The notes below the pieces were generated by a model, which was not told the DNA's origin, ran no database searches, and saw nothing but the letters and a program-made list of their open reading frames with translations. Below are positions 6,364 to 34,888 of a stretch of 64,000 nt of DNA, one piece after another (within the stretch, counting starts at the first letter, position 1; every line of letters begins with the position of its first letter). The position numbers and the translations under genes were made by a program. The DNA lies in assembly GCA_038060895.1 (NCBI GenBank), contig JBBTCT010000027.1:64001-128000 (forward strand). The letters run 5' to 3'. The stretch is from Planctomycetota bacterium. Its GTDB lineage: Bacteria; Planctomycetota; MHYJ01; WSZJ01.

Positions 6364-6448
6364 GTTTGGGGTTTGGAGTTCCGGAGGTTGAGTTCCGGGA
6401 TCCGGGTTCCGAGTTCCGGGTGGGGTTTGGGGTCGGGAGTTTGGAGTT
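6364..6448. repeat. Degenerate tandem heptamer tract G(G/A)GTT(C/T)(C/G)
   Basis: GGTTTG GGGTTTG GAGTTCC..GAGTTCC GGGATCC GGGTTCC GAGTTCC..GGGTTTG GGGTCGG GAGTTTG. Confidence 0.7.
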
Positions 6449-6481
6449 GATCCGGGGGTTGCTGTGGGGGGTGTGGCACTA

Positions 6482-7117
6482 GTGCGCGTCCTCATTTTCG
6501 ACCTGGACGGGACGCTGGCCGAAACGCGCCTCGATATCGCGGCGGCCGCGAATCACGCGCTTCGGACGGTCGGGCTCGCGGAGATGCCGGTTGCGCGGAT
6601 CACGACCTTCGTGGGCGAGGGCGCTGGAAAACTGATCGAACGATGTCTTGGCGCACGGCAGGACCTGTTCGCGCCGGCAATGGCGGCGTGGACCGCCCAC
6701 TATGAAATCCACCTGCTTGACACGAGCGTCCTTTACGAGGGCGTCGCCGCCACTCTCGCGCGACTTCCCGCGCCGCTCGCGGTCCTCTCGAACAAACCGG
6801 CGGGGATGACGAAAACGATTCTCGACGGCCTCGGCATCGCGCGGTATTTCGCCGAGGCCCTCGGCGGCGACTCGCTTCCGGTGAAAAAGCCCGATCCCGC
6901 GGGGATCATGCACCTCACCCGTTCGACCGGAGCGCAAACGGCGGTGCTGATTGGCGACACGCCGATCGACGTCGGGACGGCGCGGGCGGCAGGCATTCCG
7001 TGCTGGGGCGCCGCGTACGGCTTCGCAGGCAGGGCCGCCCTGGCGTACGCTGGGGCGGACGCCATTTTCGAGAGGTTCGAGGATGTGGCCGCGATGGCGG
7101 ATCTCTTGACCGATTGA
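6482..7117 (+). CDS. HAD-family hydrolase (phosphoglycolate phosphatase-like)
   Basis: FDLDGTL, SNK, KKPDP, IGDT..D motifs. Confidence 0.88.
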   Translation: MRVLIFDLDGTLAETRLDIAAAANHALRTVGLAEMPVARITTFVGEGAGKLIERCLGARQDLFAPAMAAWTAHYEIHLLDTSVLYEGVAATLARLPAPLAVLSNKPAGMTKTILDGLGIARYFAEALGGDSLPVKKPDPAGIMHLTRSTGAQTAVLIGDTPIDVGTARAAGIPCWGAAYGFAGRAALAYAGADAIFERFEDVAAMADLLTD

Positions 7118-7119
7118 GA

Positions 7120-7148
7120 ATCTATTGATATATATGCAATCAATAGAT
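7120..7148. promoter_or_regulatory. Palindromic operator ATCTATTGAT-N9-ATCAATAGAT
   Basis: Perfect 10-bp inverted repeat in an AT-rich patch 21 nt before a wHTH regulator. Confidence 0.7.
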
Positions 7149-7169
7149 CGACAATCAAAGGAGACTCAA

Positions 7170-7730
7170 ATGGAAAACGCCCCGCTCCTCGCCGGCGCCC
7201 TGTCCAGCCCCGCCCGCTCCCGCCTTCTCGCGCTCCTCCGCGAGCGGGGGCCTTCGACGCAGACGGAGCTCGCCCGCGAGATCGACGCCGCCCCGGCGAC
7301 CGCCGCGTACCACCTCCGGAGGCTCGAAGCGGCAGGGCTGGCACGCCAGGCCGGAACCCGGCCCGGCCCGCGGGGTACCGTCGAGAGGTTGTTCTCGATC
7401 TCGACCCGCGGGCGCCGGATGAGATTCGTGACCCGCCACGGAACGAAGGAGGACCAGATCATGCGCCGGTCCTCTCTGTCGGAGGTCCTCGACATCCACC
7501 GGGTGGCCACGCGCGCCATCCTCCGGGAGCCCGGCCGCTTCTTCGGGCTGTCCACGAGCCGCGTCTCGGCGACGCCGGCGCAGTTCCGCAGCCTTCATCG
7601 CCGCATCGGCGCGCTCCTGAAGACCTTCGCCAGGGGTCGCGAACGCGCGCCGAAGACCGGTGAAGAGCGTTGTGCAGCGCATTTCGGCCTGTACCCGGTC
7701 GGCCATCCGGCGCCTCGCAAGGCAAATTAG
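7170..7730 (+). CDS. Winged helix-turn-helix (ArsR-like) transcriptional regulator
   Basis: ALSSPARSRLLALL..TQTELAREI..AYHLRRLEAAGL; AAGGAG SD before ATG 7170. Confidence 0.85.
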   Translation: MENAPLLAGALSSPARSRLLALLRERGPSTQTELAREIDAAPATAAYHLRRLEAAGLARQAGTRPGPRGTVERLFSISTRGRRMRFVTRHGTKEDQIMRRSSLSEVLDIHRVATRAILREPGRFFGLSTSRVSATPAQFRSLHRRIGALLKTFARGRERAPKTGEERCAAHFGLYPVGHPAPRKAN

Positions 7731-7784
7731 CCTCGCGGGTCCGAATTGACCCCGCTTTCACCCCCCCATACACTCCGCCGCTCC

Positions 7785-8126
7785 ATGACTCCCGAACAAG
7801 CCGCTCGATCCCTTGGCGAAGAACTCGCTTCCAGCCCGGAACTCACCGAACTGATGCGCTGTGAGAAGGCCTACGCCGCGGACTCTGCCGCGCAGGCACT
7901 GGTGAAGTCGGCGCAGGACGCGGGCGCGAGAATCCAGGAGTTGCAGAAGGCCGGAAAGAAGCTGGAACTGGCCGAGGCAAAGCGCATCGCGGAAGTCCAG
8001 GCGAACCTGGACTCGTGCAGGGTTGTTCAACAGCTGGTCGCTTCGCAGAAAGCCTACGAAGCCATGGTGCAGCGGTTGAACGGGGTCGTGCAGTCCGTCG
8101 TCGAGGAGAAGCGAAAAAAGGGATGA
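7785..8126 (+). CDS. YlbF/YmcA-family regulator
   Basis: A..LGEEL..SPE helical pattern; ATGA overlap with lysS. Confidence 0.7.
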   Translation: MTPEQAARSLGEELASSPELTELMRCEKAYAADSAAQALVKSAQDAGARIQELQKAGKKLELAEAKRIAEVQANLDSCRVVQQLVASQKAYEAMVQRLNGVVQSVVEEKRKKG

Positions 8127-9589
8127 GCGAGCAAGAGAAGAAGGAAACGGGCGGGCCGCGGCCCGAGGAGAAGCTCCTCGCGGACCGGCGCGCCCACATG
8201 GAGGCGGTCAAGGCGAAGGGGATCGATCCGTGGGGCGGGCGGCACGACGGGACCTCGCCGATCGGGCCGATGGTGGTCGCGTACGAGGAGGGCCTCGAAG
8301 TTTCGGCGGCCGGGAGAATCACCGGACGCCGTCAGTTCGGAAAAGCCAACTTCCTCGACCTGCGCGACTGGACCGGAAAGATCCAGCTCTACGTGAAAAA
8401 GGACATCGTCGGCGACGCCGCGATGGAGCTGTTCAACCTGCTCGACCTCGGCGACCTGGTCGCGGTCAAGGGCAAGCTCTTCAAGACCAAGACCGGCGAA
8501 ACCACGGTCGAAGTGAAGGAATTCCGCGTCCTCACGAAGTCGCTCCGGCCGCTTCCCGAAAAGTGGCACGGCCTGCAGAACGTGGAAATCCGGTACCGGC
8601 AGCGGTACCTGGACATGATCTCGAATCCCGAGGTGATGGAGACGTTCCGGAAGCGGTCGCTGATCGTGTCGGAGTGGCGGCGGTGGCTGACGGAGCGCGG
8701 GTTCATCGAGGTGGAGACGCCGATGATGCAGCCCATTCCCGGCGGCGCGGCGGCGAAGCCGTTCGTCACGCACCACAATGCGCTCGACATGCAGCTGTAC
8801 ATGAGGATCGCGCCGGAGTTGTACCTGAAGCGGCTGCTGGTGGGCGGGATGGAGAAGGTGTTCGAGATCAACCGGAACTTCCGCAACGAGGGCATCAGCC
8901 CGCGCCACAATCCCGAGTTCACGATGTGCGAGCTGTACTGGGCGTACAGCGACTACAACGGAATGATGGAGCTGACCGAGGGGCTGCTGATGCACCTGTC
9001 GCGGCTCACGTCCACGACGGGCCGTGTCCCGTTCGACGGGCGCGAGTTCGACTTTACGCCGCCGTGGCCGCGGAAAAAGTACCTCGACCTGTTCCAGGAG
9101 AAGGCGGGCTTTGACTGGTTCGACCACGAAAAAGTGGTGGCGAAGGCGCGCGAACTGAAGCTGGAGGTGGGGAAGCGCCCGCACGAGGCGATCGCGAACG
9201 ACGTGTGGGAGCACCTTGTCGAAGCAGACCTCGCCGGTCCGGTGTTCGTGATCGATTTCCCGGTCGAGTTGAGCCCACTGACGAAGCGGTCGGCGGCGGA
9301 CAACCGGGTGGTGGAGCGCTTCGAGCTCTACATCGCGAACATGGAAATTGCGAACGCCTACACGGAGCTGAACGACCCGATCGAGCAGCGCGAACGGTTC
9401 GAAAGGCAGATCACGGCGAAGGAAGAAGGGATGGAGCGGATTGACGAGGATTTCCTGGTGGCGCAGGAGCATGGGATGCCGCCGGCGGGGGGGATCGGGA
9501 TCGGGGTGGATCGGGTGGCGATGCTGCTGACTGATTCGAAGTCGATCAGGGATGTGATCCTGTTCCCGCTCATGAGGAAGACGGAGTAG
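8123..9589 (+). CDS. lysS: Lysine--tRNA ligase (class II)
   Basis: RYRQRYLD, FIEVETPMM, RIAPELYLKRL, FRNEG, HNPEFT, GMPPAGGIGIGVDR. Confidence 0.98.
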   Translation: MSEQEKKETGGPRPEEKLLADRRAHMEAVKAKGIDPWGGRHDGTSPIGPMVVAYEEGLEVSAAGRITGRRQFGKANFLDLRDWTGKIQLYVKKDIVGDAAMELFNLLDLGDLVAVKGKLFKTKTGETTVEVKEFRVLTKSLRPLPEKWHGLQNVEIRYRQRYLDMISNPEVMETFRKRSLIVSEWRRWLTERGFIEVETPMMQPIPGGAAAKPFVTHHNALDMQLYMRIAPELYLKRLLVGGMEKVFEINRNFRNEGISPRHNPEFTMCELYWAYSDYNGMMELTEGLLMHLSRLTSTTGRVPFDGREFDFTPPWPRKKYLDLFQEKAGFDWFDHEKVVAKARELKLEVGKRPHEAIANDVWEHLVEADLAGPVFVIDFPVELSPLTKRSAADNRVVERFELYIANMEIANAYTELNDPIEQRERFERQITAKEEGMERIDEDFLVAQEHGMPPAGGIGIGVDRVAMLLTDSKSIRDVILFPLMRKTE

Positions 9590-9594
9590 GCATC

Positions 9595-9799
9595 GGGAAA
9601 AACGACAACAACGAAACGAAAAGAGAAAAACGAAAAACGAAAAGAGACGGGCCAGGGGCGGTAGAGAAGGTTGCTGATTTTCTGGAATCGGTGAAATGAT
9701 CGGGGAGTTCTCCACCTCCTTTCCTTTGGCCGCACGCTACGGACCTTTTCGTTTTTTGTTTTTCGTTTTCCCCTTTTCGTTTCCTTGTTGCCGTTCTCC
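9595..9799. repeat. Imperfect ~50-bp inverted arms built of AAAACGA-like heptamers around a ~90-nt core
   Basis: Left AACGACAACAACGAAACGAAAAGAGAAAAACGAAAAAC versus reverse complement of right AACGGCAACAAGGAAACGAAAAGGGGAAAACGAAAAAC. Confidence 0.85.
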
Positions 9800-9816
9800 A
9801 TCCAGGAGCCACACCT

Positions 9817-11637
9817 CTGTACAAACTCTTCCTCGCCCTTCGTTACCTCCGCAAACGCCCGATCTCCTTCCTCTCGGTGATCGGCGTCTGGTTCGGCGTC
9901 ATGACGCTTCTGATCGTCACGAGCATCATGGGAGGCTTCGCGCGGGACCTCCGCGCGCGCATCCGTGGGATGACGGCGCACATCACGGTGACCTCGTCGC
10001 CGATGTCGCGCCTCGGGTCGATGGAGAACTGGGAAGACCTGGCGGGCAAGGTCCGGGCCGCGGCGCCGGACGAGGTCATCGCGATTTCGCCGCAGCTCGA
10101 GTGGCCGATCATGATCAGCCACGGCCAGTCACCGCAGCCCGCGACGCTCGTCGGGATCATCCCGGAACTCGAAAAACAGGTCAGCGGGTTCGCCGACCAC
10201 ATGCTCGACGGCCACCCGCCGGACTTCACGAACTACTCGAAGCAGACGCTTCCGCCCGATTGGGGCCCCTGCATCATCGGCTCCGGCGTCCTTACGAATC
10301 ACCGTCACAAGGACATCATCTTCATCTGCGACGGCGCGGGATCCGTGGCGGCCGCTGCGAGCGCCCTGTCTGCTGTCAATCCCAAGGACAAGTTCGAAAT
10401 CCTGGCCGGCGATGCGGAGTGGTCGGGTGAACTCAACTCGGGCGGCGAAGAGCGCGAGTCGCACGCCGCGGCCGACTGGCTGAAGTCGCGCCAGGACGCG
10501 CCGGTCAAGGACTGGCCGGGCGCGCTGGAAAAGGCCTACCGGCTCCTCGCCTACGACCCCAAGGGCGAGACGCGCCCGTGCGTTATCGTCGTTTTCGGCC
10601 GGGAAATCGCGCCCGAGGTCGCCTACCGCGACGCGTGGCACCGGATGCCGTCCGACACGCGGCGCTGGCTGCGCGTCTTCACGCCCGGCGACACGCTCGT
10701 CGAGCCCGGCGGCGAACAGGCCCGCGCCGCGCAGTCCCTCACCATCGAACCCGGCCCCGGCGCCCGCCTCGCCCTCGTCTCGCGCGTCCAGGATCCGTTC
10801 ATCGGCCGGTCGATTTCCGTCACGACGATCACCCCTGAGGACGCTCGCGATCGCGGCGCCGATCCCCGCATCACCCCTACCAACACGAAGCTCGGCATCG
10901 TCGGTTCCTTTAATTCCGGGATGAACGAGTACGACACGCAGATCGTCTACGCCCCCCTCGAATTCGTGCAGCGCGCGCTTCGGGAATGCCTCGTGGATGC
11001 GAAGACAAAGGAACTCGTTCTCGACGCCCAAGGCCGCATCCAGGCCGGCCGCGTCAACCGGCTCCGCATCCGGATCAAGAACTACGACGACGCCGAGAAA
11101 ATCGCCGACCGGATCCGCAAGGGCCTCGGCGGGCGCCACGGCGTCATCACGTGGCAGGCCGAGAAAGCGATCCTCCTCCAGGCCGTCGCCGTCGAGCGCA
11201 CCCTCACCGGCGTCATCATGTTTTTCATTGTCATCATGGCCGCTTTCTCCATCCTCGCGATCCTCTCCATGCTCGTCACCGAGAAGACCCGCGACATCGG
11301 CATTCTCCGCGCCCAGGGCGCCACCGTCGGCGGCGTCATGTCGATCTTCCTCGCCGAAGGCATGGTCATCGGGGTCCTCGGTTGCGGGCTCGGGCTCGGA
11401 AGCGCCAAGTACGTCCTCGACCACCTCAACCCGCTCGCCGACTGGGTCTACGAACGGACCGGCTGGTACCCCTTCCCCAAGAACATCTACCTCCTCGACC
11501 GCATCCCCCACCAGATGGACCCGCCGGTCTGGGCGCTCGTCGTCGGCGCGACGCTTTTCGTCTGCCTCCTCGCCGCCCTCTGGCCGTCGTGGAAGGCCGC
11601 TCGCCTCAACCCCATCGAAGCGCTGAGGTACGAATGA
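9817..11637 (+). CDS. lolE: Lipoprotein-releasing ABC transporter permease (LolC/E family) with enlarged periplasmic domain
   Basis: (M)YKLFLALRYLRKR..SVIGVWFGV..LIVTSIMGGF; VTEKTRDIGILRA.GA; WPSWKAARLNPIEALRYE; probable CTG start at 9817 behind AGGAG. Confidence 0.88.
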   Translation: MYKLFLALRYLRKRPISFLSVIGVWFGVMTLLIVTSIMGGFARDLRARIRGMTAHITVTSSPMSRLGSMENWEDLAGKVRAAAPDEVIAISPQLEWPIMISHGQSPQPATLVGIIPELEKQVSGFADHMLDGHPPDFTNYSKQTLPPDWGPCIIGSGVLTNHRHKDIIFICDGAGSVAAAASALSAVNPKDKFEILAGDAEWSGELNSGGEERESHAAADWLKSRQDAPVKDWPGALEKAYRLLAYDPKGETRPCVIVVFGREIAPEVAYRDAWHRMPSDTRRWLRVFTPGDTLVEPGGEQARAAQSLTIEPGPGARLALVSRVQDPFIGRSISVTTITPEDARDRGADPRITPTNTKLGIVGSFNSGMNEYDTQIVYAPLEFVQRALRECLVDAKTKELVLDAQGRIQAGRVNRLRIRIKNYDDAEKIADRIRKGLGGRHGVITWQAEKAILLQAVAVERTLTGVIMFFIVIMAAFSILAILSMLVTEKTRDIGILRAQGATVGGVMSIFLAEGMVIGVLGCGLGLGSAKYVLDHLNPLADWVYERTGWYPFPKNIYLLDRIPHQMDPPVWALVVGATLFVCLLAALWPSWKAARLNPIEALRYE

Positions 11638-12419
11638 GCGGCTTCCTCGACGCCAGGGACATCCGCCGCGAATTCCAGATCGGCGACCGGACGCTCCCGG
11701 TCCTGCGCGGCATCGACCTCTCGGTCGAGCCCGGGGACGTCGTGGCGATCGTCGGGCCCAGCGGCGCGGGGAAGAGCACCTTCCTGCACATCCTGGGGCT
11801 GCTGGACAAGCCGACTTCCGGCAGCGTGCTCTTCAAGGGCAAGCCCTACAGCGACCTGAGCGACGGCGAGCGCGCCCGGATGCGCAACACCACCTTTTCG
11901 TTCGTCTTCCAGTTCTACCACCTGCTCCCCGAATTGACGGCGCTCGAAAACGCGATTATGCCGATCATGATCCAGTCGTCGATCCTCGCGTGGCCGATCG
12001 TCCGCGGGGATGCGCGCCGGCGCGCGAAGGAACTCCTCGACCGCATGGGCATGGGGAGCCGCCTCAACCACGTGCCAGGCGCCCTTTCCGGCGGCGAACG
12101 CCAGCGCGTCGCCATCGCGCGTGCGCTGATGACCAATCCAGAAGTCGTCTTCTGCGACGAGCCCACCGGCAACCTCGACACCGTGACTTCGCAGGAGATC
12201 CAGGACCTGCTATGGTCCCTCGCCGAAGAGCGCCGCACCTGCTTCGTCATGGTCACCCACGAGCCGAGCCTGGCGCGAAGGGCGCACCGCGTCGTTCGAA
12301 TGGTGGACGGACTGATCGTGGACGGGGAAGCCCAACCGGCGATCATCCCTGCACCCGTTACGCCGGGCCCGGCACTTCCACCGTCTGCCGCGGAAACCCA
12401 GGGACCTGACAAGCAGTAA
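11634..12419 (+). CDS. lolD: Lipoprotein-releasing ABC transporter ATP-binding protein
   Basis: GPSGAGKST, FVFQFYHLLPE, LSGGERQRVAIARAL, DEPTGNLD; ATGA overlap with lolE. Confidence 0.92.
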   Translation: MSGFLDARDIRREFQIGDRTLPVLRGIDLSVEPGDVVAIVGPSGAGKSTFLHILGLLDKPTSGSVLFKGKPYSDLSDGERARMRNTTFSFVFQFYHLLPELTALENAIMPIMIQSSILAWPIVRGDARRRAKELLDRMGMGSRLNHVPGALSGGERQRVAIARALMTNPEVVFCDEPTGNLDTVTSQEIQDLLWSLAEERRTCFVMVTHEPSLARRAHRVVRMVDGLIVDGEAQPAIIPAPVTPGPALPPSAAETQGPDKQ

Positions 12420-12445
12420 AAAGGCCAGGTCGCGAGGACCTGGCC
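12418..12445 (-). terminator. Intrinsic terminator between convergent genes
   Basis: GGCCAGGTC-gcgag-GACCTGGCC hairpin with T-run on the minus strand. Confidence 0.75.
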
Positions 12446-12474
12446 GTTCATGGTTCGAACCCCCCGCGCGGCGG

Positions 12475-12945: not shown

Positions 12946-13030
12946 GTGTGCAGCTCCTTTGGTAAAGCGGATGCTTGTGGAACGACGAGGGGCGGATCAT
13001 AGGAAGAGGCCGCAGCGGGGTCAACGATAG

Positions 13031-13192
13031 GCGGGCGAGCGGGCGAGCGGGCGAGCGGGCGAGCGGGCGAGCGGGCGAGCGGGCGAGAAACAACAACTTC
13101 CCGAACCCGGATGTCCTTTTGATGTTCGCCCGCCCGCCCGCCCGCCAGCCCGCCCGCCCGCGTTTTGAATCCCGCCAGCCCGCCTGCCCGCG
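13031..13192. repeat. (GCGGGCGA)x7 tract paired with a degenerate inverted (CCCGCCNG) tract
   Basis: Seven perfect octamers 13031-13086; complementary arm 13125-13192. Confidence 0.9.
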
Positions 13193-13205
13193 TATGATTT
13201 CCCGG

Positions 13206-14054
13206 ATGTCCAGCCCCACGAAGATCGCGGCCGGCGATGCGGCGTGCGAAAAACTCGCGCGCTCGCACTACGAGAACTTCACCGTCGGCTCCTGGTTCCT
13301 GCCGAAGGACATGCGCCGCGACTTTTTCGCCGTGTACGCGTTTTGCCGCGCGACCGACGACATCGGCGACGAAGCCCCCGGCGACCGCCTCGCGGCCCTC
13401 GACGCCTGGGAAAAGGACCTCCGCAAATGCTGGGGCGGAGAACCCGCCGAGATCATGCTCGTGGCCCTCGCACGCACCATCCGCGAACGCAAGCTCCGAC
13501 AGGATCCCTTCCTCCGACTCATCGAAGCCAACCGCATGGACCAGCGGCAGTCGCGCTGGGAATCGTGGGACGACCTCCGGCGATACTGCGCCCACTCCGC
13601 CGACCCCGTGGGCCGCATGGTTCTGGGACTTTTCGGGCAGGACGACGCGAAGCGCGGCCCGCTGTCGGACGCCATCTGCACCGGACTTCAGCTCGCGAAC
13701 CACTGGCAGGACGTGGGACGCGATGCCGCTGAGAAGGGCAGGATATACCTTCCCCTGGAGGATCTCGCACAGCACGGCGTGAAGGAAGCCGACGTCATCG
13801 CCCGGCGCTCTTCACCCGCGTTCGTCGCACTGATGAAGTCGCAGGTGGACCGTGCCCGCGCGCTTTTCGACGAGGGCGAACCGCTTCTGGACCTCGTCAG
13901 CGGCACGCTGAAACGTGACGTAAAGCTGTTTCTCGGCGGGGGCCGGGCGATCCTGGACGCGATCGAGAAACAGGGGTGGGACACACTGGTGAAGCGGCCG
14001 AAGGTGTCGAGGAAGACGAAGGTCTGGCTGGCGATGAAAGCGCTGGTAGGTTAG
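13206..14054 (+). CDS. hpnC: Hydroxysqualene synthase HpnC
   Basis: HYENFTVGS, YAFCRATDDIGDE, SADPVGR, LQLANHWQDV..D..GRIYLP. Confidence 0.92.
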   Translation: MSSPTKIAAGDAACEKLARSHYENFTVGSWFLPKDMRRDFFAVYAFCRATDDIGDEAPGDRLAALDAWEKDLRKCWGGEPAEIMLVALARTIRERKLRQDPFLRLIEANRMDQRQSRWESWDDLRRYCAHSADPVGRMVLGLFGQDDAKRGPLSDAICTGLQLANHWQDVGRDAAEKGRIYLPLEDLAQHGVKEADVIARRSSPAFVALMKSQVDRARALFDEGEPLLDLVSGTLKRDVKLFLGGGRAILDAIEKQGWDTLVKRPKVSRKTKVWLAMKALVG

Positions 14055-14065
14055 GGGCGTCGTTC

Positions 14066-14161
14066 CCTTAACCTTAACCTTTCCCTTATCCTTAACCGGT
14101 CGTTACCGAGGCTGAACATCGGCAGGGCAGGTTAAGGTTAAGGGAAAGGTTAAGGTTGAGG
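14066..14161. repeat. 32-bp inverted arms made of CCTTAA/TTAAGG hexamers (30/32 identical) with a 32-nt loop
   Basis: 14066-14097 versus 14130-14161. Confidence 0.9.
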
Positions 14162-14192
14162 GGCGCCGCTGGGCGGCGCGTCCTTGCCGCCA

Positions 14193-15098: not shown

Positions 15099-15099
15099 A

Positions 15100-17678: not shown

Positions 17679-17794
17679 CTGAGCGCGTGAATGCCGGGGC
17701 GGGTCGGGCGGAGTCGGCCCGGAAAACCAAATCCGCACAAGCAACGCTGAAGCGGCCGACGCAGCGTGACCCGCCCCGGCATTCACGCGCTCAG
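17679..17794. repeat. REP/MITE-like palindrome with perfect 27-bp inverted arms
   Basis: CTGAGCGCGTGAATGCCGGGGCGGGTC at 17679-17705 and its exact reverse complement at 17768-17794. Confidence 0.9.
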
Positions 17795-21323: not shown

Positions 21324-21659
21324 ATGTTCGTCGCGATGAACGTCTTCACCTGCGAGGATGAGGCTTCCGCCCGGAACCTTGAAGCGATGTTCCTGAAGCG
21401 CTCCGGGTTGGTGGACCAGCAGCCGGGCTTCCTGTCGTTCGCATTCCTCAAGTGCGCCGAGAATCCGCTGCGCCTGATTTCCATGTCGCACTGGAATTCG
21501 AAGGAGGAGTTCGAGGCATGGACGAAGTCGCAGGCGTTTGAAAAGGGACACCAGAGGGCGAAAGAGTCCGGGAAGCCGTCGCCCCACGGTGCGATGAAAG
21601 TGGCGAATGCGCTGGAGACTTATGAAGTGGTCAGTCACTCCGTGAAGGGGAGAGAATAG
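21324..21659 (+). CDS. Antibiotic-biosynthesis-monooxygenase (IsdG/HmoA-like) family protein
   Basis: MFVAMN..F.KR..PGF..WNSKEEFEAWTKSQAF..GH. Confidence 0.85.
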   Translation: MFVAMNVFTCEDEASARNLEAMFLKRSGLVDQQPGFLSFAFLKCAENPLRLISMSHWNSKEEFEAWTKSQAFEKGHQRAKESGKPSPHGAMKVANALETYEVVSHSVKGRE

Positions 21660-21752
21660 TAGGTAGTGGGTAGGAGGCAGAAAAAGGCCCTAGGAGATCG
21701 GGCGGGGGTCGTTAGAATCGGGGACCGCCACTTAACGGGGTTACCTATTGCC

Positions 21753-22446: not shown

Positions 22447-22455
22447 GCGGCGATT

Positions 22456-24896: not shown

Positions 24897-24964
24897 CGGC
24901 GGAGTATAGCCGCCTCCTGCGACTCAACCTGCGGGGCATCAAAAGTCGATTAACAGGCAGGAAC

Positions 24965-25336: not shown

Positions 25337-25410
25337 GAAGGGGTGCTTCTAATGATCCATGGAAGAGTGGAATAGGCAGAACGCGCAGCGGATTGGATGG
25401 CGCAGGAATT

Positions 25411-26738: not shown

Positions 26739-28942
26739 TTCTTCCCCAGGGCGGCGAGCACTTTGTCGGGGGTGATGGGGAGGTCGCTGATCCGCTTGCC
26801 GATGGCGTGCGCGACGGCGTTGGCGATCGCGGCCGGCGTCGGGATGATCGGCGGTTCCCCGATCCCCATGACTCCGGTGTTCGTCCGGCCGTTGGAGACG
26901 TCGAAGAGCACGACGGTGATTTCCGGGACTTCCTTCGGGCCCGCGATCCGGTAGTCGGAAAAGTTCGTGTTCAGCATGCGGCCCGAGGCGTCGTCAAGAA
27001 TTCGCTGCTCGAAAAGCGCGTAGGAGAGCCCCTGGATGATGCCTCCGTTGATCTGGCTTTCTGCGAGAAGCGGGTTGACGACGCGACCGCAGTCATGGAC
27101 GGCGACGACGCGGAGCACCTGCACGTGGCCGGTTTCGAGGTCGACTTCCACTTCCGCGAACTGACAGCCGGCGGTGCCGTCGCGGTAGCCCTTGAAGTTC
27201 TGGGCGCGCGTCGCCTGTTCGCTGACGTTGGCGCCGCTGATTTTCGCGCACGCTTCGGCCCACGAAATCGAGGTCCCGTCCTTCGCGACGACTTTTCCGT
27301 CCTTCGCGGTCAGGCTGTCCGCGTTTCCCTTCAGCGCCTTGGCGCACGCCTCGAACACGCGCCCCCTGGCCGCGGCCGCCGCGGCGCGCACCGCCGGCGT
27401 CACGGACGGGGCCGTCATCGAGCCGCCGCTTCCGTGCGAGTAGGGAAGCGTCGTATCGCCGAGTTTGACGCGGACCTGATCCGCTTTCAGCCCGAGTTCT
27501 TCGGCGGCGATCATCGCGATGATGGTGCGCGTGCCCGTCCCGATGTCCTGCGTGCCGCACTGGATTTCGACCGCGCCGTCGCGCGAGATGACGCAGCGGG
27601 CCTGCGCTCCAGGACCGCCGCCGCCGCCCCAGATTGAAGCGGCCACTCCGAGTCCGCGCGCCTTGCCTGGACCTCCCGCGTTCGGGAGCTGCGCGCGCCC
27701 CTCCCACCCCGCGACCTTGGCGCCCTCGCCGTATTCCGCGTGGCGCATTTCGTTGGAATCGTTCTTCTTCCGGAATTCGATCGGGTCCAGCCCGAGCTTC
27801 CCCGCAAGCTCGTCCATCGCTCCCTCGAGCGCGAACATCCCCTGCACGTGGCCGGGCGCGCGGAATGCGGCGGCGCCCCCGGCGTTCGTCATGACGTCCG
27901 CGTGCCAGACGCGCCGCACCGGGCAGTTGTACAGCGACATCAGGGGCGCCGCGCAGTTCGCCCCGCCGTTGATCCCGCCTGTCCCGTGGCTCACGAGCCA
28001 GAGACACGTCAGCTTGCCCTCCTTGTCCGCTCCCGCGCGCACACGCTGCACGCTCGACGGCCGGTTTCCTCCCGCCAGGTGCTCCTCTTTGCGCGTCAGC
28101 ATCAGCTTCACAGGCGCCTTCGCCTCGCGCGCCAGCCGCGCCGCAATCATCGAGTGCTGCCCCATGCCGAGCTTCGAGCCAAAGCCGCCTCCCATATGCT
28201 CCTTCAGGACGCGCACTTTTTCGGCCGGAAGCTGGAACCCGCGTGCCAGCCCATCGCGCACCGCGAAAATCCCCTGCGTCGAATCCCAGACGGTGAGCGA
28301 CCCATCGGACTCCCATTTCGCCACGCTCCCGTGACTCTCCAGGCACGAATGCGTCACCACCGGAGTCGTGAACGTGATGTCCACCGTGGCGTGCGATTTC
28401 TTGAGGGCGGAAGAGCAGGCTTCTTCCGCGGCCGTGTTCTGCGCTTCGCCACCGCGCTCGTTCGGGTTCTTGCCGCCCTGCACGCGCGGCGCGTTCGGCT
28501 TGCGGGCCTCTTCAAGGTCGACCACGTGCTCCTCGACCGCCCAGTCCACCTCGATCGCCCGCACTGCGTCCTCGGCCTGCGCTTCGGTCTCCGCCGCGAC
28601 CGCCGCGATCGGGTCGCCCTGGAACCTGGCCGCCTTCGCGATCTCAATCGCCGCTTTCACTCCCGGCATCTTCAGCGCCTTCGCAAACCCGATCGACCGC
28701 ACCGTCGCGCGCGCGTACGGCGACCGCAATACCCTCGCGATCAGCATCCCTTCCAACTTAACGTCCGCCGTGTACTTCGCCTTCCCCGTGACCTTGTCTG
28801 CTCCTTCGAGGCGCGGCGAACGCTTCCCGACCACCGCCAGCTTCGAGTCCGCATCCCAGGGAGCGGGCTCTGCGTCCGGCGAATCGACCTCGACCTCGCG
28901 GTAGTTGCCGGGATAGCCAACCCGAAGAGTCCGCTTGGCCAT
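26735..28942 (-). CDS. Xanthine dehydrogenase family molybdopterin-binding subunit (PaoC/YagR-like)
   Basis: KVTGKAKY, GGGFGSK, FRAPG, QDIGTG, SGGS, GIGEPP. Confidence 0.92.
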   Translation of the reverse strand: MAKRTLRVGYPGNYREVEVDSPDAEPAPWDADSKLAVVGKRSPRLEGADKVTGKAKYTADVKLEGMLIARVLRSPYARATVRSIGFAKALKMPGVKAAIEIAKAARFQGDPIAAVAAETEAQAEDAVRAIEVDWAVEEHVVDLEEARKPNAPRVQGGKNPNERGGEAQNTAAEEACSSALKKSHATVDITFTTPVVTHSCLESHGSVAKWESDGSLTVWDSTQGIFAVRDGLARGFQLPAEKVRVLKEHMGGGFGSKLGMGQHSMIAARLAREAKAPVKLMLTRKEEHLAGGNRPSSVQRVRAGADKEGKLTCLWLVSHGTGGINGGANCAAPLMSLYNCPVRRVWHADVMTNAGGAAAFRAPGHVQGMFALEGAMDELAGKLGLDPIEFRKKNDSNEMRHAEYGEGAKVAGWEGRAQLPNAGGPGKARGLGVAASIWGGGGGPGAQARCVISRDGAVEIQCGTQDIGTGTRTIIAMIAAEELGLKADQVRVKLGDTTLPYSHGSGGSMTAPSVTPAVRAAAAAARGRVFEACAKALKGNADSLTAKDGKVVAKDGTSISWAEACAKISGANVSEQATRAQNFKGYRDGTAGCQFAEVEVDLETGHVQVLRVVAVHDCGRVVNPLLAESQINGGIIQGLSYALFEQRILDDASGRMLNTNFSDYRIAGPKEVPEITVVLFDVSNGRTNTGVMGIGEPPIIPTPAAIANAVAHAIGKRISDLPITPDKVLAALGKK

Positions 28943-28943
28943 G

Positions 28944-29549
28944 TTATTTCGCCTTCGCGGCGGAGGCGGCCGCTTCAAAGATCCGGTTATACGCCGCGCA
29001 CCGGCAGAGGTTGCCGCAAAGTCCCGCGCGGATCTGGTCGCCGGACGGGGAAGGGGTTTTCTCGAGGAGGGCGACGGTCGCCATGACCTGCCCGGGCGTG
29101 CAGTAGCCGCACTGGTAGCCGTCTTTCTCGATGAAGGCCGCCTGGACGGGATGCAGGTCCTCGCCCTTTGCGAGCCCCTCGATGGTCCTGATTTCGCGGC
29201 CGCGGGCCTGCAGGGCCAGCATCATGCAGGCGTAGACGGCCTTTCCGTCGACGATCACCGTACAGGCGCCGCACTCACCGCGATCGCAGGCATTCTTTGC
29301 TCCCGTGAGGTCGAGCGAATCCCGGAGGACGTCGAGAAGCGTCGCCCGGGGTTCAGCGGTGACCTCGTGGTCGTTGCCGTTGACCCGCAGGCCGAACTTT
29401 ACGGGAGCGGGGCCGAGCCCGCCGCCGGCCTTGCGGAGGTCCTCGTCTTCCGCCGACGACTTGCCGGCAAGCATCCCTGCGCCTGCCAGCGCGCCAGTGA
29501 CGCTTAGGAAATCGCGGCGGGAAAGGCCTTCCGGTCGGTCTGCGGGCAT
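28944..29549 (-). CDS. [2Fe-2S] subunit with Tat signal (PaoA/YagT-like)
   Basis: SRRDFL Tat motif; CDRGECGAC, QCGYCTPG, NLCRC. Confidence 0.92.
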   Translation of the reverse strand: MPADRPEGLSRRDFLSVTGALAGAGMLAGKSSAEDEDLRKAGGGLGPAPVKFGLRVNGNDHEVTAEPRATLLDVLRDSLDLTGAKNACDRGECGACTVIVDGKAVYACMMLALQARGREIRTIEGLAKGEDLHPVQAAFIEKDGYQCGYCTPGQVMATVALLEKTPSPSGDQIRAGLCGNLCRCAAYNRIFEAAASAAKAK

Positions 29550-29641
29550 CGGGGAACTGTACGGGTGCGCGGGGGGCGTGTCAAAGCGGGGATGAACAGC
29601 TTCTGCAAACCCGGTGACCGGGCTAGAATTCACCTTCACCC

Positions 29642-30454
29642 ATGCGACGCCTCATCATCAACGCGGACGACCTCGGCGCGGACCCCGCCCGCAACCGAGG
29701 CATCTTCGAAGCCGCCCAGCGCGGCGTCGTCACCGACGGATCGCTTCTCGTGAACGCGCAGGGTTTTGAAGATGCCGTGAAGGACAAGCGGATGAAGGAC
29801 CTTCCGTGCGGCCTGCACCTGAACATCAGCGAGGGGAAACCGATCGGCGGTCCGTACAAGACGCTCACCGCAGCCAACGGAGACTTCTTCGGCAAGGACG
29901 AAACGTGGAGGCTCGCGCTCTGCGGCATGTTCGACCCGGCGGAAATCCGCATTGAAGCGGAAGCGCAGGTTTCGCTGATGCGCCGGGCGGGCGTCGATCC
30001 CACGCACCTCGACGGGCACCAGCACCTTCACCTTGTCCCGCGCGTCGCGGCCGGCCTGCTCGCCCTCTCGGTGCCGCGACGGGTCCGCCTCGTATTCGAA
30101 CATCCCGACGGCACGATCATGGCCGGGCCCGACAAGGCGGCGTACCTCAACCGCTTCCGCGAAATGTCCGCCGCTTCCCGCCCGCTGTGGGAAGCGGCCG
30201 GCTGGCGCTGGCCGGAACGGCACCTCGGCGCGGGCTTGATCGGAGCCGTGCACCCCGGGACGCTCCTGCGCCTCCTCGATCTCGTCGGGGATGGCATTTC
30301 CGAAGTCCTCGTCCACCCCGGCTACCCGCAGGCCGGCTCGCTTCCGTTCTCGACGTCGGAGCGCGAAATCGAGCTCGAGGCCCTTCTCGACCCGCGCATC
30401 CGCGAAGGGATCGGTGCGCGCGGCCTGACGCTCTCGAACTGGAGCGCCGTGTAG
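29642..30454 (+). CDS. YdjC/ChbG/HpnK-family carbohydrate deacetylase
   Basis: IINADDLG, GLHLNISEG, THLDGHQHLH, EVLVHPG. Confidence 0.9.
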   Translation: MRRLIINADDLGADPARNRGIFEAAQRGVVTDGSLLVNAQGFEDAVKDKRMKDLPCGLHLNISEGKPIGGPYKTLTAANGDFFGKDETWRLALCGMFDPAEIRIEAEAQVSLMRRAGVDPTHLDGHQHLHLVPRVAAGLLALSVPRRVRLVFEHPDGTIMAGPDKAAYLNRFREMSAASRPLWEAAGWRWPERHLGAGLIGAVHPGTLLRLLDLVGDGISEVLVHPGYPQAGSLPFSTSEREIELEALLDPRIREGIGARGLTLSNWSAV

Positions 30455-30457
30455 CCC

Positions 30458-31486
30458 TTGGAAATCGCGCTCGTCGTACCGGCGTATGGCACGGTCACGG
30501 GGAACTCGATTTCCGCGCGGCGCATCCTGCAGGGGATCGTCGCCTCGGGCTCACTCGCAAAGGTCCTCGACGTTGAAGCGCTGGGCGTCTACATCCCGAA
30601 CGTGATTGCGGCGTACGAGCCCGACGTTGTCCACGCGTTCCACGCCCGCAAAACCGGCTTCCTCGTCCGCGACTCTCGTCCCCTCGTCATTTCCCTCACG
30701 GGGACTGACGTAGGGCGCGACCTGGCGGTGCCGGACCACAAAGCAGAGGTCCTGGCCGCATGCCGCGCGGCTTTCGCGCTGGTCGTTCACCATCGCGAAA
30801 CCGCCGCGCCGCTCCTGGAAGCGGATCCCTCGCTCGCGGCGAAGATACGAATCGTTCCGAAAGGAATGGGACTGCTCGAGGAAGCGCCCTTCCCGATGCG
30901 GGAGACGTTTTCGATTCCGTCCGACCGACCGGTTTTCCTGATGCCGGGCGGGATCCGGCCCGTCAAAGGTCAACTGCGGGCGATTCATGCGCTGGACAAT
31001 CTCGGGATTGAGCTTGTGATCGCCGGCCCGCGGCTGGACGAGGAGTACGGGAAGCGGGTTGTCGAGGCGGCGCGGGAACGGCCGTGGGTTCGCCTCATTG
31101 AGATCCGTCCGCACGCACGGATGGCGGGCGCCTACCGCGAGGCCGACGTCGTCCTGAACGCCTCGGATGTCGAAGGGATGTCGAACGCAATCCTGGAAGC
31201 GATGTACTTCGCCCGCCCCGTGCTGGCTGCGGACATCCCCGGCAACCGCAGCCTGGTTGAGCCGGGCGTGACCGGGTTGATGTTCAGCAGCGACGCCGAG
31301 TTGCGCGAAGCCGCCCGCCGGCTCGCAACGGATGCCGCTCTTCGCTCCACCCTCGGCACGGGCGGCGCGATCCGCGCCAGGGCCCGGCATTCCGCGGAAG
31401 CCGAGGCGAAGGCGATGATGGAGATCTACCGGGAGGCGGCAGCCTCGATGGCCGGCGTCAAACGGACGCCAACCGTGCTGCCGTAA
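30458..31486 (+). CDS. GT4 glycosyltransferase, SenB/GLT1D1-like subgroup
   Basis: TGNSISARR, HAFHARK, LTGTD, GIRPVKG, EGMSNAILEAM. Confidence 0.8.
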   Translation: MEIALVVPAYGTVTGNSISARRILQGIVASGSLAKVLDVEALGVYIPNVIAAYEPDVVHAFHARKTGFLVRDSRPLVISLTGTDVGRDLAVPDHKAEVLAACRAAFALVVHHRETAAPLLEADPSLAAKIRIVPKGMGLLEEAPFPMRETFSIPSDRPVFLMPGGIRPVKGQLRAIHALDNLGIELVIAGPRLDEEYGKRVVEAARERPWVRLIEIRPHARMAGAYREADVVLNASDVEGMSNAILEAMYFARPVLAADIPGNRSLVEPGVTGLMFSSDAELREAARRLATDAALRSTLGTGGAIRARARHSAEAEAKAMMEIYREAAASMAGVKRTPTVLP

Positions 31487-32691
31487 TGCGTCGCAATTTC
31501 ATCCTCCTCTGGCTCGGGCAGTTCATTTCGCAGGCGGGCGACGCGTTGCTCTCCGCCGTTCTCGTTTTTCTCGTGCTGGCGCTGAGCCCGGAAGGAGTCG
31601 GCGGCGGACGCGCCGGGCTCGTTCGTTTTGCCGGGACCGTTCCATTCCTGCTCCTGAGCCCGCTCGCGGGGATGCTCGCCGACCGCGTCGATCGCCGGCG
31701 GCTGATGATCGTTTCCGACGTCGCGCGCGCCGCGGTCCTGCTTGCCATCCCGTTCCTCTGGCAGGCAGGGGAGTTGACCTGGCTCACGCTCGCCGTCGCG
31801 GCGTTCCTCGTCTCCACCTTCTCCAGCGCCTTCTCCCCGGCGATGAGCGCGTTCGTCCCGGACATCGCCGAAGGCCTGGCGCTCGTCCGCGCCAACGCTC
31901 TTCTCCAGACCTCCACCCAGCTGGCTATGATCGGAGGCATGCTGGTCGCCGCCGTGGCCCTCGGGGCCGCCGGTCCGGAGAGTGCGAAGCGGCCCGGCAC
32001 CATGGTCGTCCTCATCGCCGCAAACGGCGCCACCTTCCTCTTCTCGGCCGCCTGCCTCCGCTTCATCCGCACAGCCCCACGCCCCCCGCGCCCGGCAACC
32101 CGCCCCGCCGCCGGGCTCACCCTCGCCCTCCGATCCCCACTCTTCCGCGCCCTCCTCTTCCTCACCGCCGTCGATAATTTCTTCATCATGGGACCGGCCA
32201 TGGTCGGAAGCGCCATTCTGCTGAAGACGACTTTCGGGCTCGGAGTGAAGGAACTCGCGATCTTCGAGGCGTGCCTTGCGGGGGGATGGTTCTGCGGGAG
32301 CATCTGGCTCGCTAGAAGAGCGACGTTTTTCCTGCCGAAAGGGAAGCTGCTGCTCCTCGGGATGTTCCTGGACGGGGTGACGTACATCCCGTTCTTCTGG
32401 ATCCGGTCGTTTCCCCTGCTGTGCCTCGCGGTGTTCGTCCATGGCCTCACCATCCCGCTCATCACCGTCCCGCGCACCGTCCTCGTCCAGGAGCGGATCC
32501 CCCGCGAGATGCAGGCCCAGGCGTTCTCCCTCGTGCAGCTCACGGTCATCGGATTCACCTCGCTGTCCGTTCTCGCCACCGGCTGGCTAGGCGACCGGAT
32601 CGGCGCCCCGGCGCTCTTCCTCGGAGCCGGAATCGGGGCGATGGTGGGGCTCGCGGGCGCGTTCTCCCGGGCGCTTCGGCAGGCCACATGA
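31486..32691 (+). CDS. MFS transporter
   Basis: NFILLWLGQFISQAGD, GMLADRVDRRRLM, multiple TM segments. Confidence 0.9.
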   Translation: MRRNFILLWLGQFISQAGDALLSAVLVFLVLALSPEGVGGGRAGLVRFAGTVPFLLLSPLAGMLADRVDRRRLMIVSDVARAAVLLAIPFLWQAGELTWLTLAVAAFLVSTFSSAFSPAMSAFVPDIAEGLALVRANALLQTSTQLAMIGGMLVAAVALGAAGPESAKRPGTMVVLIAANGATFLFSAACLRFIRTAPRPPRPATRPAAGLTLALRSPLFRALLFLTAVDNFFIMGPAMVGSAILLKTTFGLGVKELAIFEACLAGGWFCGSIWLARRATFFLPKGKLLLLGMFLDGVTYIPFFWIRSFPLLCLAVFVHGLTIPLITVPRTVLVQERIPREMQAQAFSLVQLTVIGFTSLSVLATGWLGDRIGAPALFLGAGIGAMVGLAGAFSRALRQAT

Positions 32692-32728
32692 AGTGCGTGT
32701 AGCGCCTCATTATTATCAAACGCCCCTA

Positions 32729-32756
32729 TTGACATAGAGGCATCTCATCATATAAT
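32729..32756 (+). promoter_or_regulatory. Consensus sigma-70 promoter of recQ
   Basis: TTGACA (32729-32734), 16-nt spacer, TATAAT (32751-32756), 6 nt before ATG. Confidence 0.8.
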
Positions 32757-32762
32757 GGAGGC

Positions 32763-34697
32763 ATGAACCTCGAATCCGACTTGAAGCGGCTCTTCGGCCA
32801 CGAACGCTTCCTTCCCGGCCAGAAACCCCTCGTCGAGGCCCTGCTCGGCGGGCGCGACGCCCTCGGAATCCTCCCCACGGGCGGCGGCAAGTCCCTCTGT
32901 TACCAGCTTCCGGCCTTTCTCAGGCCCGGCCTCACCGTCGTGGTCTCACCTCTCATTGCCCTCATGAAGGACCAGGTGGATGGGCTGAGGCGAAGAGGCA
33001 TCCCGGGATCTGCGGAGATTCACTCACACCTCCCGGCCGGTGAAGGAATGCGGCGGATCCGAGAAGCGGCGGCCGGCCGGCTGCGGCTGCTTTACCTCTC
33101 GCCGGAGCGCCTGTCGATCCCCGGCACCGTGACGGCCCTTCGGCGTGCGGGAGTGGCGCGCTTCGTCGTCGACGAAGCCCACTGCATTTCTCACTGGGGG
33201 CACGACTTCCGCCCCGACTACCTTGGGCTGTCGCCGCACGCAGCGGCGCTCGGGGCAGGAGCAACTCTCGCGCTGACGGCGACCGCGACCCCGCGTGTCC
33301 GTGCGGAAATCGTGGCTCGGCTCGGGCTGCGATCGCCCTGCGTCATCGTGAACCCGTTCGACCGGCCCAATCTGTTTCTCGGGGCCCGCAGGGTCGCCGA
33401 GGAGAAGAAGGTGGATGCCGCGGCGGGCGTGCTGGGCCGGGAAGGATCGGCGATCGCCTACGTTGGCCGCCAGAAGGACGCCGTGGAAGTCGCCGCGGCT
33501 CTCGTCGAACGCGGCATTTCCGCCGTTCCGTACCACGGCGGAATGGACAGCAAGCAGCGCGCCAGCAACCAGGACGCCTGGATCCGGGGACGCGCCCGCG
33601 TCGTCGTGGGAACCGTCGCCTTCGGGATGGGAATCGACAAGCCCGACGTCCGCGCCGTGGTCCATCTCCACCTCCCAGGATCGCTGGAGGCCTATTACCA
33701 GGAAATCGGCCGTGCCGGGCGCGACGGAGAGCCGGCGAACTGCTGGCTTCTGCACAGCCCGCGCAATTCGTCGCTTCACCACTTCTTCATCGAGCGCCGC
33801 TATCCCACCGAGGCCGAGATTCGCGTCGTACACGAGCGACTCCTCCTGGGAGAAGGGCCCCCGCCACCGCGGGAATTCCCTCCCGAGAAGTGGCAGTCCG
33901 CCCGCGCCTGGCTCATGGAGAAGGGGCTCATGGCTCCCGGCCGCCCCCTTGCGCCTCTTCCGTTGACGCTGGACCTCGCTTCTCTTCAAGCCCGCAAAGC
34001 CGCCGACCTCGCGCGCCTCGCGGCCGTCGAATCGTGGGCCGATGGCGACCGGTGCCGCAGGGCGGCGCTTCTGAGGTACTTCGGCGAGCGCCCTTCGCCG
34101 GACCTGGACTGCCGCAACTGCGACGCGTGTCGCCGATCTCCCGGCGATCATGCGCAGGCACGGGAGATGGGCGTCTATACGGGGCGGAGGGATCCCGACG
34201 AAGAAGCGGTGCGTTCCGCGGTTCTGGCGGCGGCCACTGAGCTCGGTCCGCGAGGGATTTCCAGGCGCGTGCTCGACCAGATCCTCGCCGGGCGGGCGGA
34301 ACCCGCGGCCCGAAAGGGGCTCCACCGGTCCGCCCACCTGGGTTCGCTGGAGGGACTCGCGGCGCAGCGGCTGATAGAGACGAAGAAGGCCCTGGTCGAG
34401 GAGGGGACCTTCGACGAGGTGCCCGGACCGGCCGCAACCTGGCTCCCGGGAAGTCCGCGGCCCGTTGTGCCGCACGCGGAAGCGGTCCGGATTCTACGGC
34501 TGGTGGCGGGGGATCTGGCGAGGCTCACACGGACGCAAGCGGCGCGCCGGCTGGGCGGGGATGCGGCGTTCTGGGCGGAGCGGATTGAGCTTCTCGCGCG
34601 GTCGGGGTATGTCGATTCGGACGGGGAAGCGCGGCTGGTGCTGACGCCGAAGGGGATGGAGGCGGTGGCGACGGCGGAGAGGCGGGGGGCTGTTTAG
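32763..34697 (+). CDS. recQ: RecQ-family ATP-dependent DNA helicase
   Basis: PTGGGKSLCYQ, DEAHCISHWGHDFRP, AFGMGIDK, QEIGRAGRDG, CRR..CRNCDAC. Confidence 0.92.
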   Translation: MNLESDLKRLFGHERFLPGQKPLVEALLGGRDALGILPTGGGKSLCYQLPAFLRPGLTVVVSPLIALMKDQVDGLRRRGIPGSAEIHSHLPAGEGMRRIREAAAGRLRLLYLSPERLSIPGTVTALRRAGVARFVVDEAHCISHWGHDFRPDYLGLSPHAAALGAGATLALTATATPRVRAEIVARLGLRSPCVIVNPFDRPNLFLGARRVAEEKKVDAAAGVLGREGSAIAYVGRQKDAVEVAAALVERGISAVPYHGGMDSKQRASNQDAWIRGRARVVVGTVAFGMGIDKPDVRAVVHLHLPGSLEAYYQEIGRAGRDGEPANCWLLHSPRNSSLHHFFIERRYPTEAEIRVVHERLLLGEGPPPPREFPPEKWQSARAWLMEKGLMAPGRPLAPLPLTLDLASLQARKAADLARLAAVESWADGDRCRRAALLRYFGERPSPDLDCRNCDACRRSPGDHAQAREMGVYTGRRDPDEEAVRSAVLAAATELGPRGISRRVLDQILAGRAEPAARKGLHRSAHLGSLEGLAAQRLIETKKALVEEGTFDEVPGPAATWLPGSPRPVVPHAEAVRILRLVAGDLARLTRTQAARRLGGDAAFWAERIELLARSGYVDSDGEARLVLTPKGMEAVATAERRGAV

Positions 34698-34721
34698 ACC
34701 ACGGCTTACATCGTCGCAGGT

Positions 34722-34888
34722 ACACGGAGTTCACGAAGGACACGGAAGACACAGAAAAATGAACTTGAACGAGTTGACCTACGCCGTGATTGGCGGCGCG
34801 ATAGAAGTTCACGGGGTGTCGGGGGCCTGGGTTGCTCGAAGGAACATACTAGGTCTGCCTGCCTCTGTGCTCTGCGTGAACTCCGTGT
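34722..34888 (+). pseudogene. Truncated GxxExxY-family gene remnant between inverted 9-bp-periodic arms
   Basis: MNLNELTYAVIGGAIEVH from 34759, frameshift in G5 run, then GPGLLEGTY*VCL; perfect 14-bp IR ACACGGAGTTCACG at 34722-34735/34875-34888. Confidence 0.8.

Follow-up and report, generated by a model that had tools for sequence, protein, structure and literature searches.

Intergenic hairpins with tandem-repeat arms in a Planctomycetota genome and their relationship to small-gene cassettes

In a 64,000-nucleotide stretch of the genome of a Planctomycetota bacterium (assembly GCA_038060895.1, contig JBBTCT010000027.1, positions 64,001 to 128,000 of the forward strand), referred to below as the window and numbered from its first letter, four intergenic loci consist of a short tandemly repeated unit, a short core and the same unit in inverted orientation. 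We found that these loci belong to multi-copy families of repeat-armed elements, some members of which carry a small gene between the arms, and that one of the four, at position 34722, is a deleted copy of such a gene-carrying cassette. We consider it likely that all of them represent one class of small hairpin cassettes that includes gene-less or decayed members. The class itself is real, widespread and barely described. The original prediction, made from the letters of the window, had proposed a selfish cassette in which a small gene is bracketed by repeat-derived arms, and had named independent slippage as the reading to adopt if neither gene-carrying copies nor presence/absence polymorphism existed. 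Both were found, and the proposal is supported.

In order to place the window loci in a wider context, the whole genome (5.42 Mb, 47 contigs, 86.5% complete) was searched for inverted repeats whose arms had 20 or more matched bases and whose loops did not exceed 1100 nt, and the genes enclosed were tabulated, as the original prediction had suggested. The scan returned 419 loci, comprising 174 with microsatellite arms, 36 in two families resembling repetitive extragenic palindromic (REP) sequences and 209 unclassified loci. The arm families were set by a dictionary of units read off the scan output; single-linkage clustering by shared 8-mers, which chained 332 loci into one cluster, was discarded. 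At least 174 loci were thus assigned to 13 unit families of 1 to 23 loci each, a lower bound, given that the scan and dictionary miss two of the four window loci (13031 and 34722). The cargo consisted of four-helix-bundle and GxxExxY genes. Within a family, the arms share conserved non-periodic detail at up to 21 loci, and the units seen in the window thus did not arise separately at each locus. The earlier description of a conserved architecture with unconserved sequence holds inside the window; genome-wide, each unit forms a multi-copy family with conserved arm sequence. Only one of the 174 microsatellite-arm loci is contained in a continuous open frame, versus 39 of the 209 unclassified loci. 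Every type of intergenic region is occupied about as often as expected from its abundance, with 99 elements in tandem, 28 in convergent and 22 in divergent gene contexts, against a background of 2295, 586 and 582. The LysS protein is 86% identical to that of the nearest named relative, a Planctomycetia metagenome-assembled genome, and the window DNA recurs in groundwater and aquifer sequencing runs. We also noticed that contigs end at these elements, and that assemblies are broken by them.

Two kinds of small gene are carried between the arms. The genome has six PF05635 (four-helix-bundle) and four PF13366 (GxxExxY) genes; eight of these ten genes sit between inverted repeat-built arms, each of a different family, and a PF05635 open reading frame (ORF) is enclosed in six cassettes. 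In eight genomes of the genus, flanking inverted arms with at least 15 matches were present at 50 of 56 PF05635 genes (three of the six armless ones are at contig ends) and at 25 of 29 PF13366 genes. The encoded proteins score above the cut-offs of TIGR02436 (four-helix-bundle) and TIGR04256 (GxxExxY); full GxxExxY copies reach 124.5 bits with TIGR04256, whose cut-off is 35, and 92-124 bits in the PF13366/GxxExxY profile scan. A full cassette measures 430-850 bp: a left arm built of degenerate tandem units is followed by a sigma-70-like promoter, by one small gene, for either a four-helix-bundle protein of the kind known from 23S rRNA intervening sequences and Avd or a PD-(D/E)XK-like GxxExxY protein, and by a right arm that repeats the left one in inverted orientation. 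The promoter-like sequence lies between the left arm and the gene in all three cassettes scanned, with scores of 12/12, 10/12 and 9/12 against 0.1-0.3 expected; no terminator-like sites were found in the same three. Each arm type is represented by about 5-25 dispersed loci per genome, of which typically one carries the gene and the others do not. All six unit types of the window, those of the four two-armed loci and of two one-armed tracts, have counterparts among cargo-cassette arms, with 83-100% identity across 13-53 nt. None of the cassettes examined encloses a transposase; apart from four-helix-bundle and GxxExxY genes, the large loops of the families contain only an FtsL-like host gene and a 134-aa ORF of unassigned family. 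It had been stated that only the 34722 copy has cargo; this is correct within the window, where the cargo is a GxxExxY remnant, and gene-carrying copies exist elsewhere in the genome. DUF559 genes, also put forward as cargo, have to be dropped, the sole PF04480 match lying in a 1693-aa frame.

Three gene-enclosing loci deserve a separate description. At C9:84945-85377 (L291), inverted GGTAG-type arms with 31 matches surround the FtsL-like host gene (sub-threshold FtsL matches, E 1e-8), and the locus may represent two one-armed tracts or two neighbouring elements. At C36:102464-103118 (L292), TTGAAG-type arms surround the 134-aa ORF, which has hydrophobic stretches and no Pfam or NCBIfam match, and which may belong to the host or represent a third cargo type. 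The GTTCCGG four-helix-bundle cassette at C6:52010-53157 (L059) possesses a further arm outside it, some 480 nt upstream, by which another ORF, of 130 aa and without Pfam match, is enclosed; its inner left arm is interrupted by a small unrelated hairpin, which suggests nesting.

A change of arm unit goes along with a change of cargo protein, whether one site or different phyla are compared. A tree of the 56 four-helix-bundle proteins of the genus groups by arm unit. For syntenic cassettes with the same unit, protein identity is 79-94% in four out of five groups and 67-76% in the fifth, GTTCCGG; with different units it is 45-68%, with the exception of GGGGAT versus GGGGC (76-78%). The flank identity is similar for both kinds of syntenic pair. 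Relatives of one four-helix-bundle protein were collected at 80 loci from at least 17 phyla, two of them archaeal. Periodic inverted arms were present at 59 of the 75 loci with enough flanking sequence, and the period is 7 in 53 of the 59. On the protein tree, cassettes with identical units group together even when they come from different phyla, as exemplified by the AGGAGTC type in Nitrospirota, Cyanobacteriota and Acidobacteriota. The arms of GxxExxY cassettes, in the genus and at 16 loci of other phyla, have a period of 8-10 or are aperiodic. As far as sequence comparison can tell, this coupling would fit both the inheritance or transfer of whole cassettes as units and the reading of the arms by the protein.

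Comparison of orthologous sites shows that congeneric species have gained, lost or replaced elements at fixed positions between genes. Presence/absence polymorphism, which the original prediction had proposed to look for, was observed among congeners at all four window sites, and a filled allele was found at the 34722 site. The site between lysS and lolCE carries AAAACGA arms in four species, among which the loop diverges while the arms persist, and three other families in three species (G002, G005 and G006); it is without an element in G007, G009 and G022 (13-45 nt), and one relative has 744 nt of unrelated ORFs there. At the 34722 site, the closest congener, G002, carries a cassette of 547 nt, whose arms are of the same type and whose near-full GxxExxY gene is broken only by one frameshift; the present genome retains a deleted remnant, and the site is empty in G003, G004 and G005. 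The hpnC-hpnD site has two arms here, the right arm only in G001, G003 and G004, and none in G002, G006 and G007. At the 13031 site, two species have the 8-mer family and G004 has a 10-mer family; one further species carries a non-periodic hairpin and another a one-arm remnant, and G006 and G007 have nothing there. Additionally, one cargo site (locus Y) holds three different cassette families between flanks that are 80-92% identical. In DNA contigs of two other samples spanning 9481-9841 and 8845-12118, no population variation was seen.

The window elements are listed in Table 1. The four two-armed loci and both one-armed tracts were confirmed with Tandem Repeats Finder and an inverted-repeat tool. 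All four two-armed loci fold more stably than 100 shuffled sequences (z -4.5 to -9.8 as RNA, -3.3 to -9.3 as DNA). A stricter scan, which misses 13031 and 34722, detected three inverted-repeat loci in the window versus a mean of 0.13 in 30 dinucleotide shuffles. The proposed location of two elements inside operons agrees with gene orientation, since lysS and the LolC/E-type permease gene are on the same strand, as are hpnC and hpnD. The gene remnant of the 34722 element was recognised only by tblastn.

Table 1. Repeat-armed elements of the window, with arm structure and related cassettes.
Feature	Position	Strand	Location	Structure	Related cassettes and families
Single array, GTTCCGG family	6364..6448	n/a	upstream of phosphoglycolate-phosphatase-like gene	one complete arm; no partner arm seen	matches arms of four-helix-bundle cassettes L059, L080 and L064 (83-94% identity)
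Gene-less hairpin, AAAACGA family (7-mer)	9595..9799	n/a	between lysS and LolC/E permease gene	tandem tracts 9597-9643 and 9746-9799; arms 9601-9643 and 9753-9795, 43 nt, 88% complementary; 109-nt loop; fold z -4.6	arms match cargo cassette L098; family of 18 loci genome-wide
Gene-less hairpin, GCGGGCGA family (8-mer)	13031..13197	n/a	between divergent peroxiredoxin gene and hpnC	left arm 13031-13087 (8-mer x7.1, 100% matches); right arm of C-rich tracts 13127-13197; fold z -8.9	arms 97% match to four-helix-bundle cassette in G002
Gene-less hairpin, CCTTAA family (6-mer)	14063..14162	n/a	between hpnC and hpnD	arms 14065-14097 and 14130-14162, 33 nt, 94% complementary; 32-nt loop; fold z -9.8	arms 97% match to cargo cassettes L071 and L065
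Short one-armed tract, GGTAG-type heptamer family	21657..21680	n/a		about 3 units	weak match to cassette L063 arms (13 nt, E 0.001); family of 16 loci genome-wide
Decayed GxxExxY cassette, 9-mer-type arms	34722..34888	+	between RecQ-family helicase gene and convergent unnamed gene	arms 34722-34746 and 34864-34888, 25 nt, 84% complementary, 117 nt apart; truncated gene inside
GxxExxY gene remnant (PF13366 / TIGR04256)	34759..34852	+	inside the 34722 cassette	first ~30 codons, frameshift, internal deletion up to right arm	tblastn E = 3e-8 versus G002 gene

We regard the elements as probably selfish or neutral DNA rather than host regulators, which may spread without a classical transposase. Arms, gene and promoter may be inherited, exchanged and horizontally transferred as a unit. 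The arms would act as cis-acting sites of exchange, probably recognised by the cargo protein of the same lineage, so that gene-less copies would behave as non-autonomous derivatives. By analogy with the intervening sequences (IVSs) of 23S rRNA genes, the long stem may also let RNase III cut the insert from the host transcript, which would make insertion inside operons harmless. A more far-reaching version, which we put forward tentatively and think rather doubtful as a whole, is that the cassettes are autonomous transposase-less mobile elements in which the cargo protein is the specific partner of its own arms. The protein would then determine the arm register, which would be 7 nt with a pentameric four-helix bundle resembling the accessory protein Avd and 8-10 nt with a GxxExxY nuclease. 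Exchange of entire cassettes would take place at fixed docking sites between genes, in the manner of a dispersed integron; copies without a gene would ride along as non-autonomous members, and the IVS of 23S rRNA would be a special case.

Several observations weigh against the proposed mobile cassette. Gene-carrying cassettes are mostly syntenic between species, so that gene-carrying copies rarely move on this time scale, and gene-less family copies persist in genomes whose shared-site cassette is of another family. No insertion event was definable, and neither was a duplication of the target site or a footprint of excision; the closest empty alleles are about 20% diverged, and filled and empty alleles differ too much around the junctions. 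The central loops of the gene-less copies are unrelated to each other and to the cargo genes, with a single pair sharing its loop, and none of 93 gene-less microsatellite-arm loops contains a cargo remnant (E <= 0.01). Simple copy-and-paste thus does not account for the gene-less copies, of which only 12 of the 93 match a cassette of their own family, and only at its arm-proximal ends. Nothing indicates that arm pairing is preserved once an element has inserted: in the GTTCCGG and ATCCGCGG families, an arm matches its own partner no better than the partners of other copies (0.823 versus 0.829 and 0.773 versus 0.782, respectively). G-U mismatches are not in excess in the host-sense RNA of the microsatellite families (63 sense versus 80 antisense), which weakens the RNase III idea for gene-less copies. 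Finally, we know of no catalytic activity of the four-helix-bundle protein.

A wider comparison, covering all 226 loops of 30-330 nt, likewise revealed no cargo remnants (E <= 0.01). The designation of the window elements as empty or decayed copies therefore has to be divided: the 34722 element is a decayed cargo copy, and the remnant-free loops of the 93 others indicate that "empty" copies may have been gene-less from their origin. Considering the unshared loops, the lack of remnants, the uncoupled arms and the missing G-U excess, the gene-less copies look like decaying relics and not like maintained RNA structures. The RNA data consulted were assembled contigs of two small aquifer metatranscriptome runs, in which 7-11% of the sampled words were present. 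An RNA-library contig with an exact match that ends at 14126, beside the right arm at 14130, was rejected as a processing end, such an end being expected from assembly at a 33-nt inverted repeat. A joint from 9643 to 9747 was also rejected as an RNA signal; it occurs in a DNA run as well, and fits another family copy.

Three other explanations have to be weighed against the hairpin-cassette class. The loci could be non-autonomous elements similar to miniature inverted-repeat transposable elements, or MITEs, moved by an unlinked conventional transposase or by host recombination, with the small genes as passengers. The families are indeed dispersed, short, non-coding and intergenic, with conserved arms, and in the GTTCCGG and ATCCGCGG families each arm seems to have decayed independently from a common consensus, as after a burst; moreover, about 20 of the 174 elements, in 5-7 families, share an outer GGGAAAACGGC-type end motif, against 0.6 expected. 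We nevertheless judge this explanation unlikely. Interiors are not copied, apart from the one loop-sharing pair, whereas a true MITE family of this genome keeps its loops 94-100% identical in matched copies. Furthermore, the large loops occur without any transposase, a search for Y1 transposase genes (PF01797) gave 0 matches in the genome at its 86.5% completeness, and the arm unit tracks the cargo clade across phyla. The MITE-like family used for contrast has about 7 copies with inverted ends of about 40 nt, among them C18:21969-22138, C24:210416-210583, C19:81400-81572, C22:127215-127388 and C1:358582-358779.

Selection by the host for structural elements that regulate flanking genes, such as hairpins for mRNA processing or stabilisation, attenuators or G-quadruplex switches, appears improbable, although the AAAACGA arms at lysS-lolCE are kept in four species despite the divergence of the loop, two elements lie inside operons, and heptamer pairs of Xanthomonas are discussed as possible regulators in parts of PMC4692102. 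The lysS-lolCE site is empty in three relatives and has unrelated arm families in three others, the hpnC-hpnD site has two arms, one or none, and the gene context mirrors the background. The absence of terminator-like sites from the three scanned cassettes, of a sense-strand G-U bias, and of co-maintained partner arms in two large families points in the same direction. Independent products of replication slippage that form inverted pairs by chance are the explanation to which we give hardly any credit. Heptamer repeats are over-represented in many bacteria according to literature cited in sections of PMC4692102 and PMC4679880, and one-armed tracts do exist. Independent slippage is, however, already contradicted by the non-periodic arm detail conserved at up to 21 loci per family, by the match of the arms to those of cargo cassettes and by the recurrence of the same units around related genes in other phyla; the inverted pairs of the window also exceed those of shuffled sequences (3 versus 0.13).

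Among known systems, the closest is the ORF-bearing IVS of 23S rRNA genes, reported from Coxiella burnetii, Leptospira, Brucella and Xanthomonas. As described in the passages of PMC4990558 on the Coxiella IVS, this insert has a 28-bp terminal stem and tandem heptamers (GACAGAT x2-3) beside a decaying S23p ORF, is cut by RNase III, and is called unclear in origin. The long stem, the heptamers, the decay of the ORF and the suspected selfish or mobile nature are shared with the present elements, whose window arms measure 25-43 nt and are 84-94% complementary. A small S23p/PF05635 ORF inside terminal inverted repeats is found in the gene-carrying cassettes of the genome and genus; the four window loci are gene-less or contain a GxxExxY remnant. 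The elements differ from the IVS in lying between protein genes, whereas the IVS is inserted into the 23S rRNA gene, at helix 25 or 45. No large 23S rRNA insert was found in the genus, the genes measuring 2991-2993 nt in the five of eight genomes with a 23S match, compared with 2925 model positions. Also unlike the IVS, the arms consist of long repeat arrays from many unit families, the design is shared by a second cargo (GxxExxY), and most copies are gene-less. RNase III cutting, documented for the IVS, is a predicted possibility for the present elements.

In Xanthomonas, Rehm et al. 2015 (PMC4692102) reported 70-75 intergenic pairs of inverted GGGAATC heptamer arrays per genome. The arrays resemble those found here in being convergent inverted arrays of a G-rich heptamer, whose position is kept between two species while the length varies; the sections of that paper describing them treat them as G-quadruplex motifs, without a link to enclosed genes or to other unit families. 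In the literature covered, from which subscription journals were absent, we found no description of gene cassettes with repeat-built arms outside rRNA.

MITEs and the REPIN/RAYT systems (REP-derived hairpin elements with their associated transposase) are short, non-coding, hairpin-forming, multi-copy and intergenic, and vary in presence between relatives. The present elements are similar to MITEs in being short, non-coding and multi-copy, with terminal inverted repeats (174 loci, 13 families), and differ from MITEs and REPINs in their unconserved interiors, in arms made of tandem repeats and in gene-carrying relatives that encode no transposase; unlike REP or REPIN elements with a RAYT, they occur in a genome in which no Y1 gene was found. 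Compared by anatomy with integron cassettes (no integrase search was made), they differ in having the ORF enclosed by the hairpin and in occurring as single, scattered cassettes.

The PF05635 family is related to Avd, the accessory protein of diversity-generating retroelements, according to the part of PMC10053308 that deals with it. The cargo four-helix-bundle protein matches Avd weakly, below the cut-off (PF22296 24.5 bits, NF033474 26.9 bits). A diversity-generating retroelement or another reverse-transcriptase route through this Avd-like protein was considered and rejected: the two RVT_1 genes of the genome (contigs C17 and C26), which score retron-like and group-II-like, are unlinked to the six four-helix-bundle genes, and neither an adjacent reverse transcriptase nor a template/variable repeat was found beside the latter. 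The retron-type reverse transcriptase gene (C17:32941-33999, L293; Ec67/St85-like, below the cut-offs) has a 48-nt inverted repeat just upstream, at C17:34030-34150. The region just upstream of the reverse transcriptase gene is the usual place of the retron msr/msd.

The origin and mobility of the ORF-bearing 23S rRNA IVS have been a question since the 1990s, and the present elements bear on it as well as on the function of two very widespread small families, annotated as "four helix bundle protein" and "GxxExxY protein". The genus provides a tractable comparative system, in which a genome has dozens of cassettes and a given site may be filled, decayed, empty or replaced, and the protein-arm correspondence is directly open to binding assays. 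If the proteins read their arms, the cassettes would represent a new mode of selfish DNA and a source of programmable repeat-binding proteins. It is also important to mention that such elements can be mistaken for regulatory hairpins.

A further hairpin of the window, at 17679-17794 (41 nt, 90% complementary), has non-periodic arms ending in a GTCGGCC-type motif and belongs to a REP-like family, distinct from the repeat-armed ones, that has about 24 loci genome-wide; the second REP-like family has about 12 loci with 8-nt loops. Two observations concern the genes next to window elements. In the region 13000-13210 and in its relatives (L021-L028), the sequence GGTCAACG to the left of the 13031 element and GCGTATSAT to its right are kept in all congeners. 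Where relatives lack the element, about 17 nt separate the two sequences, as would be the case for a -35/-10 pair of hpnC; the element may split a putative promoter. At 9817-9822 and in its relatives (L001-L005), the LolC/E permease gene apparently starts with CTG in five congeners with an upstream element, and with ATG or GTG in element-free or differently filled relatives.

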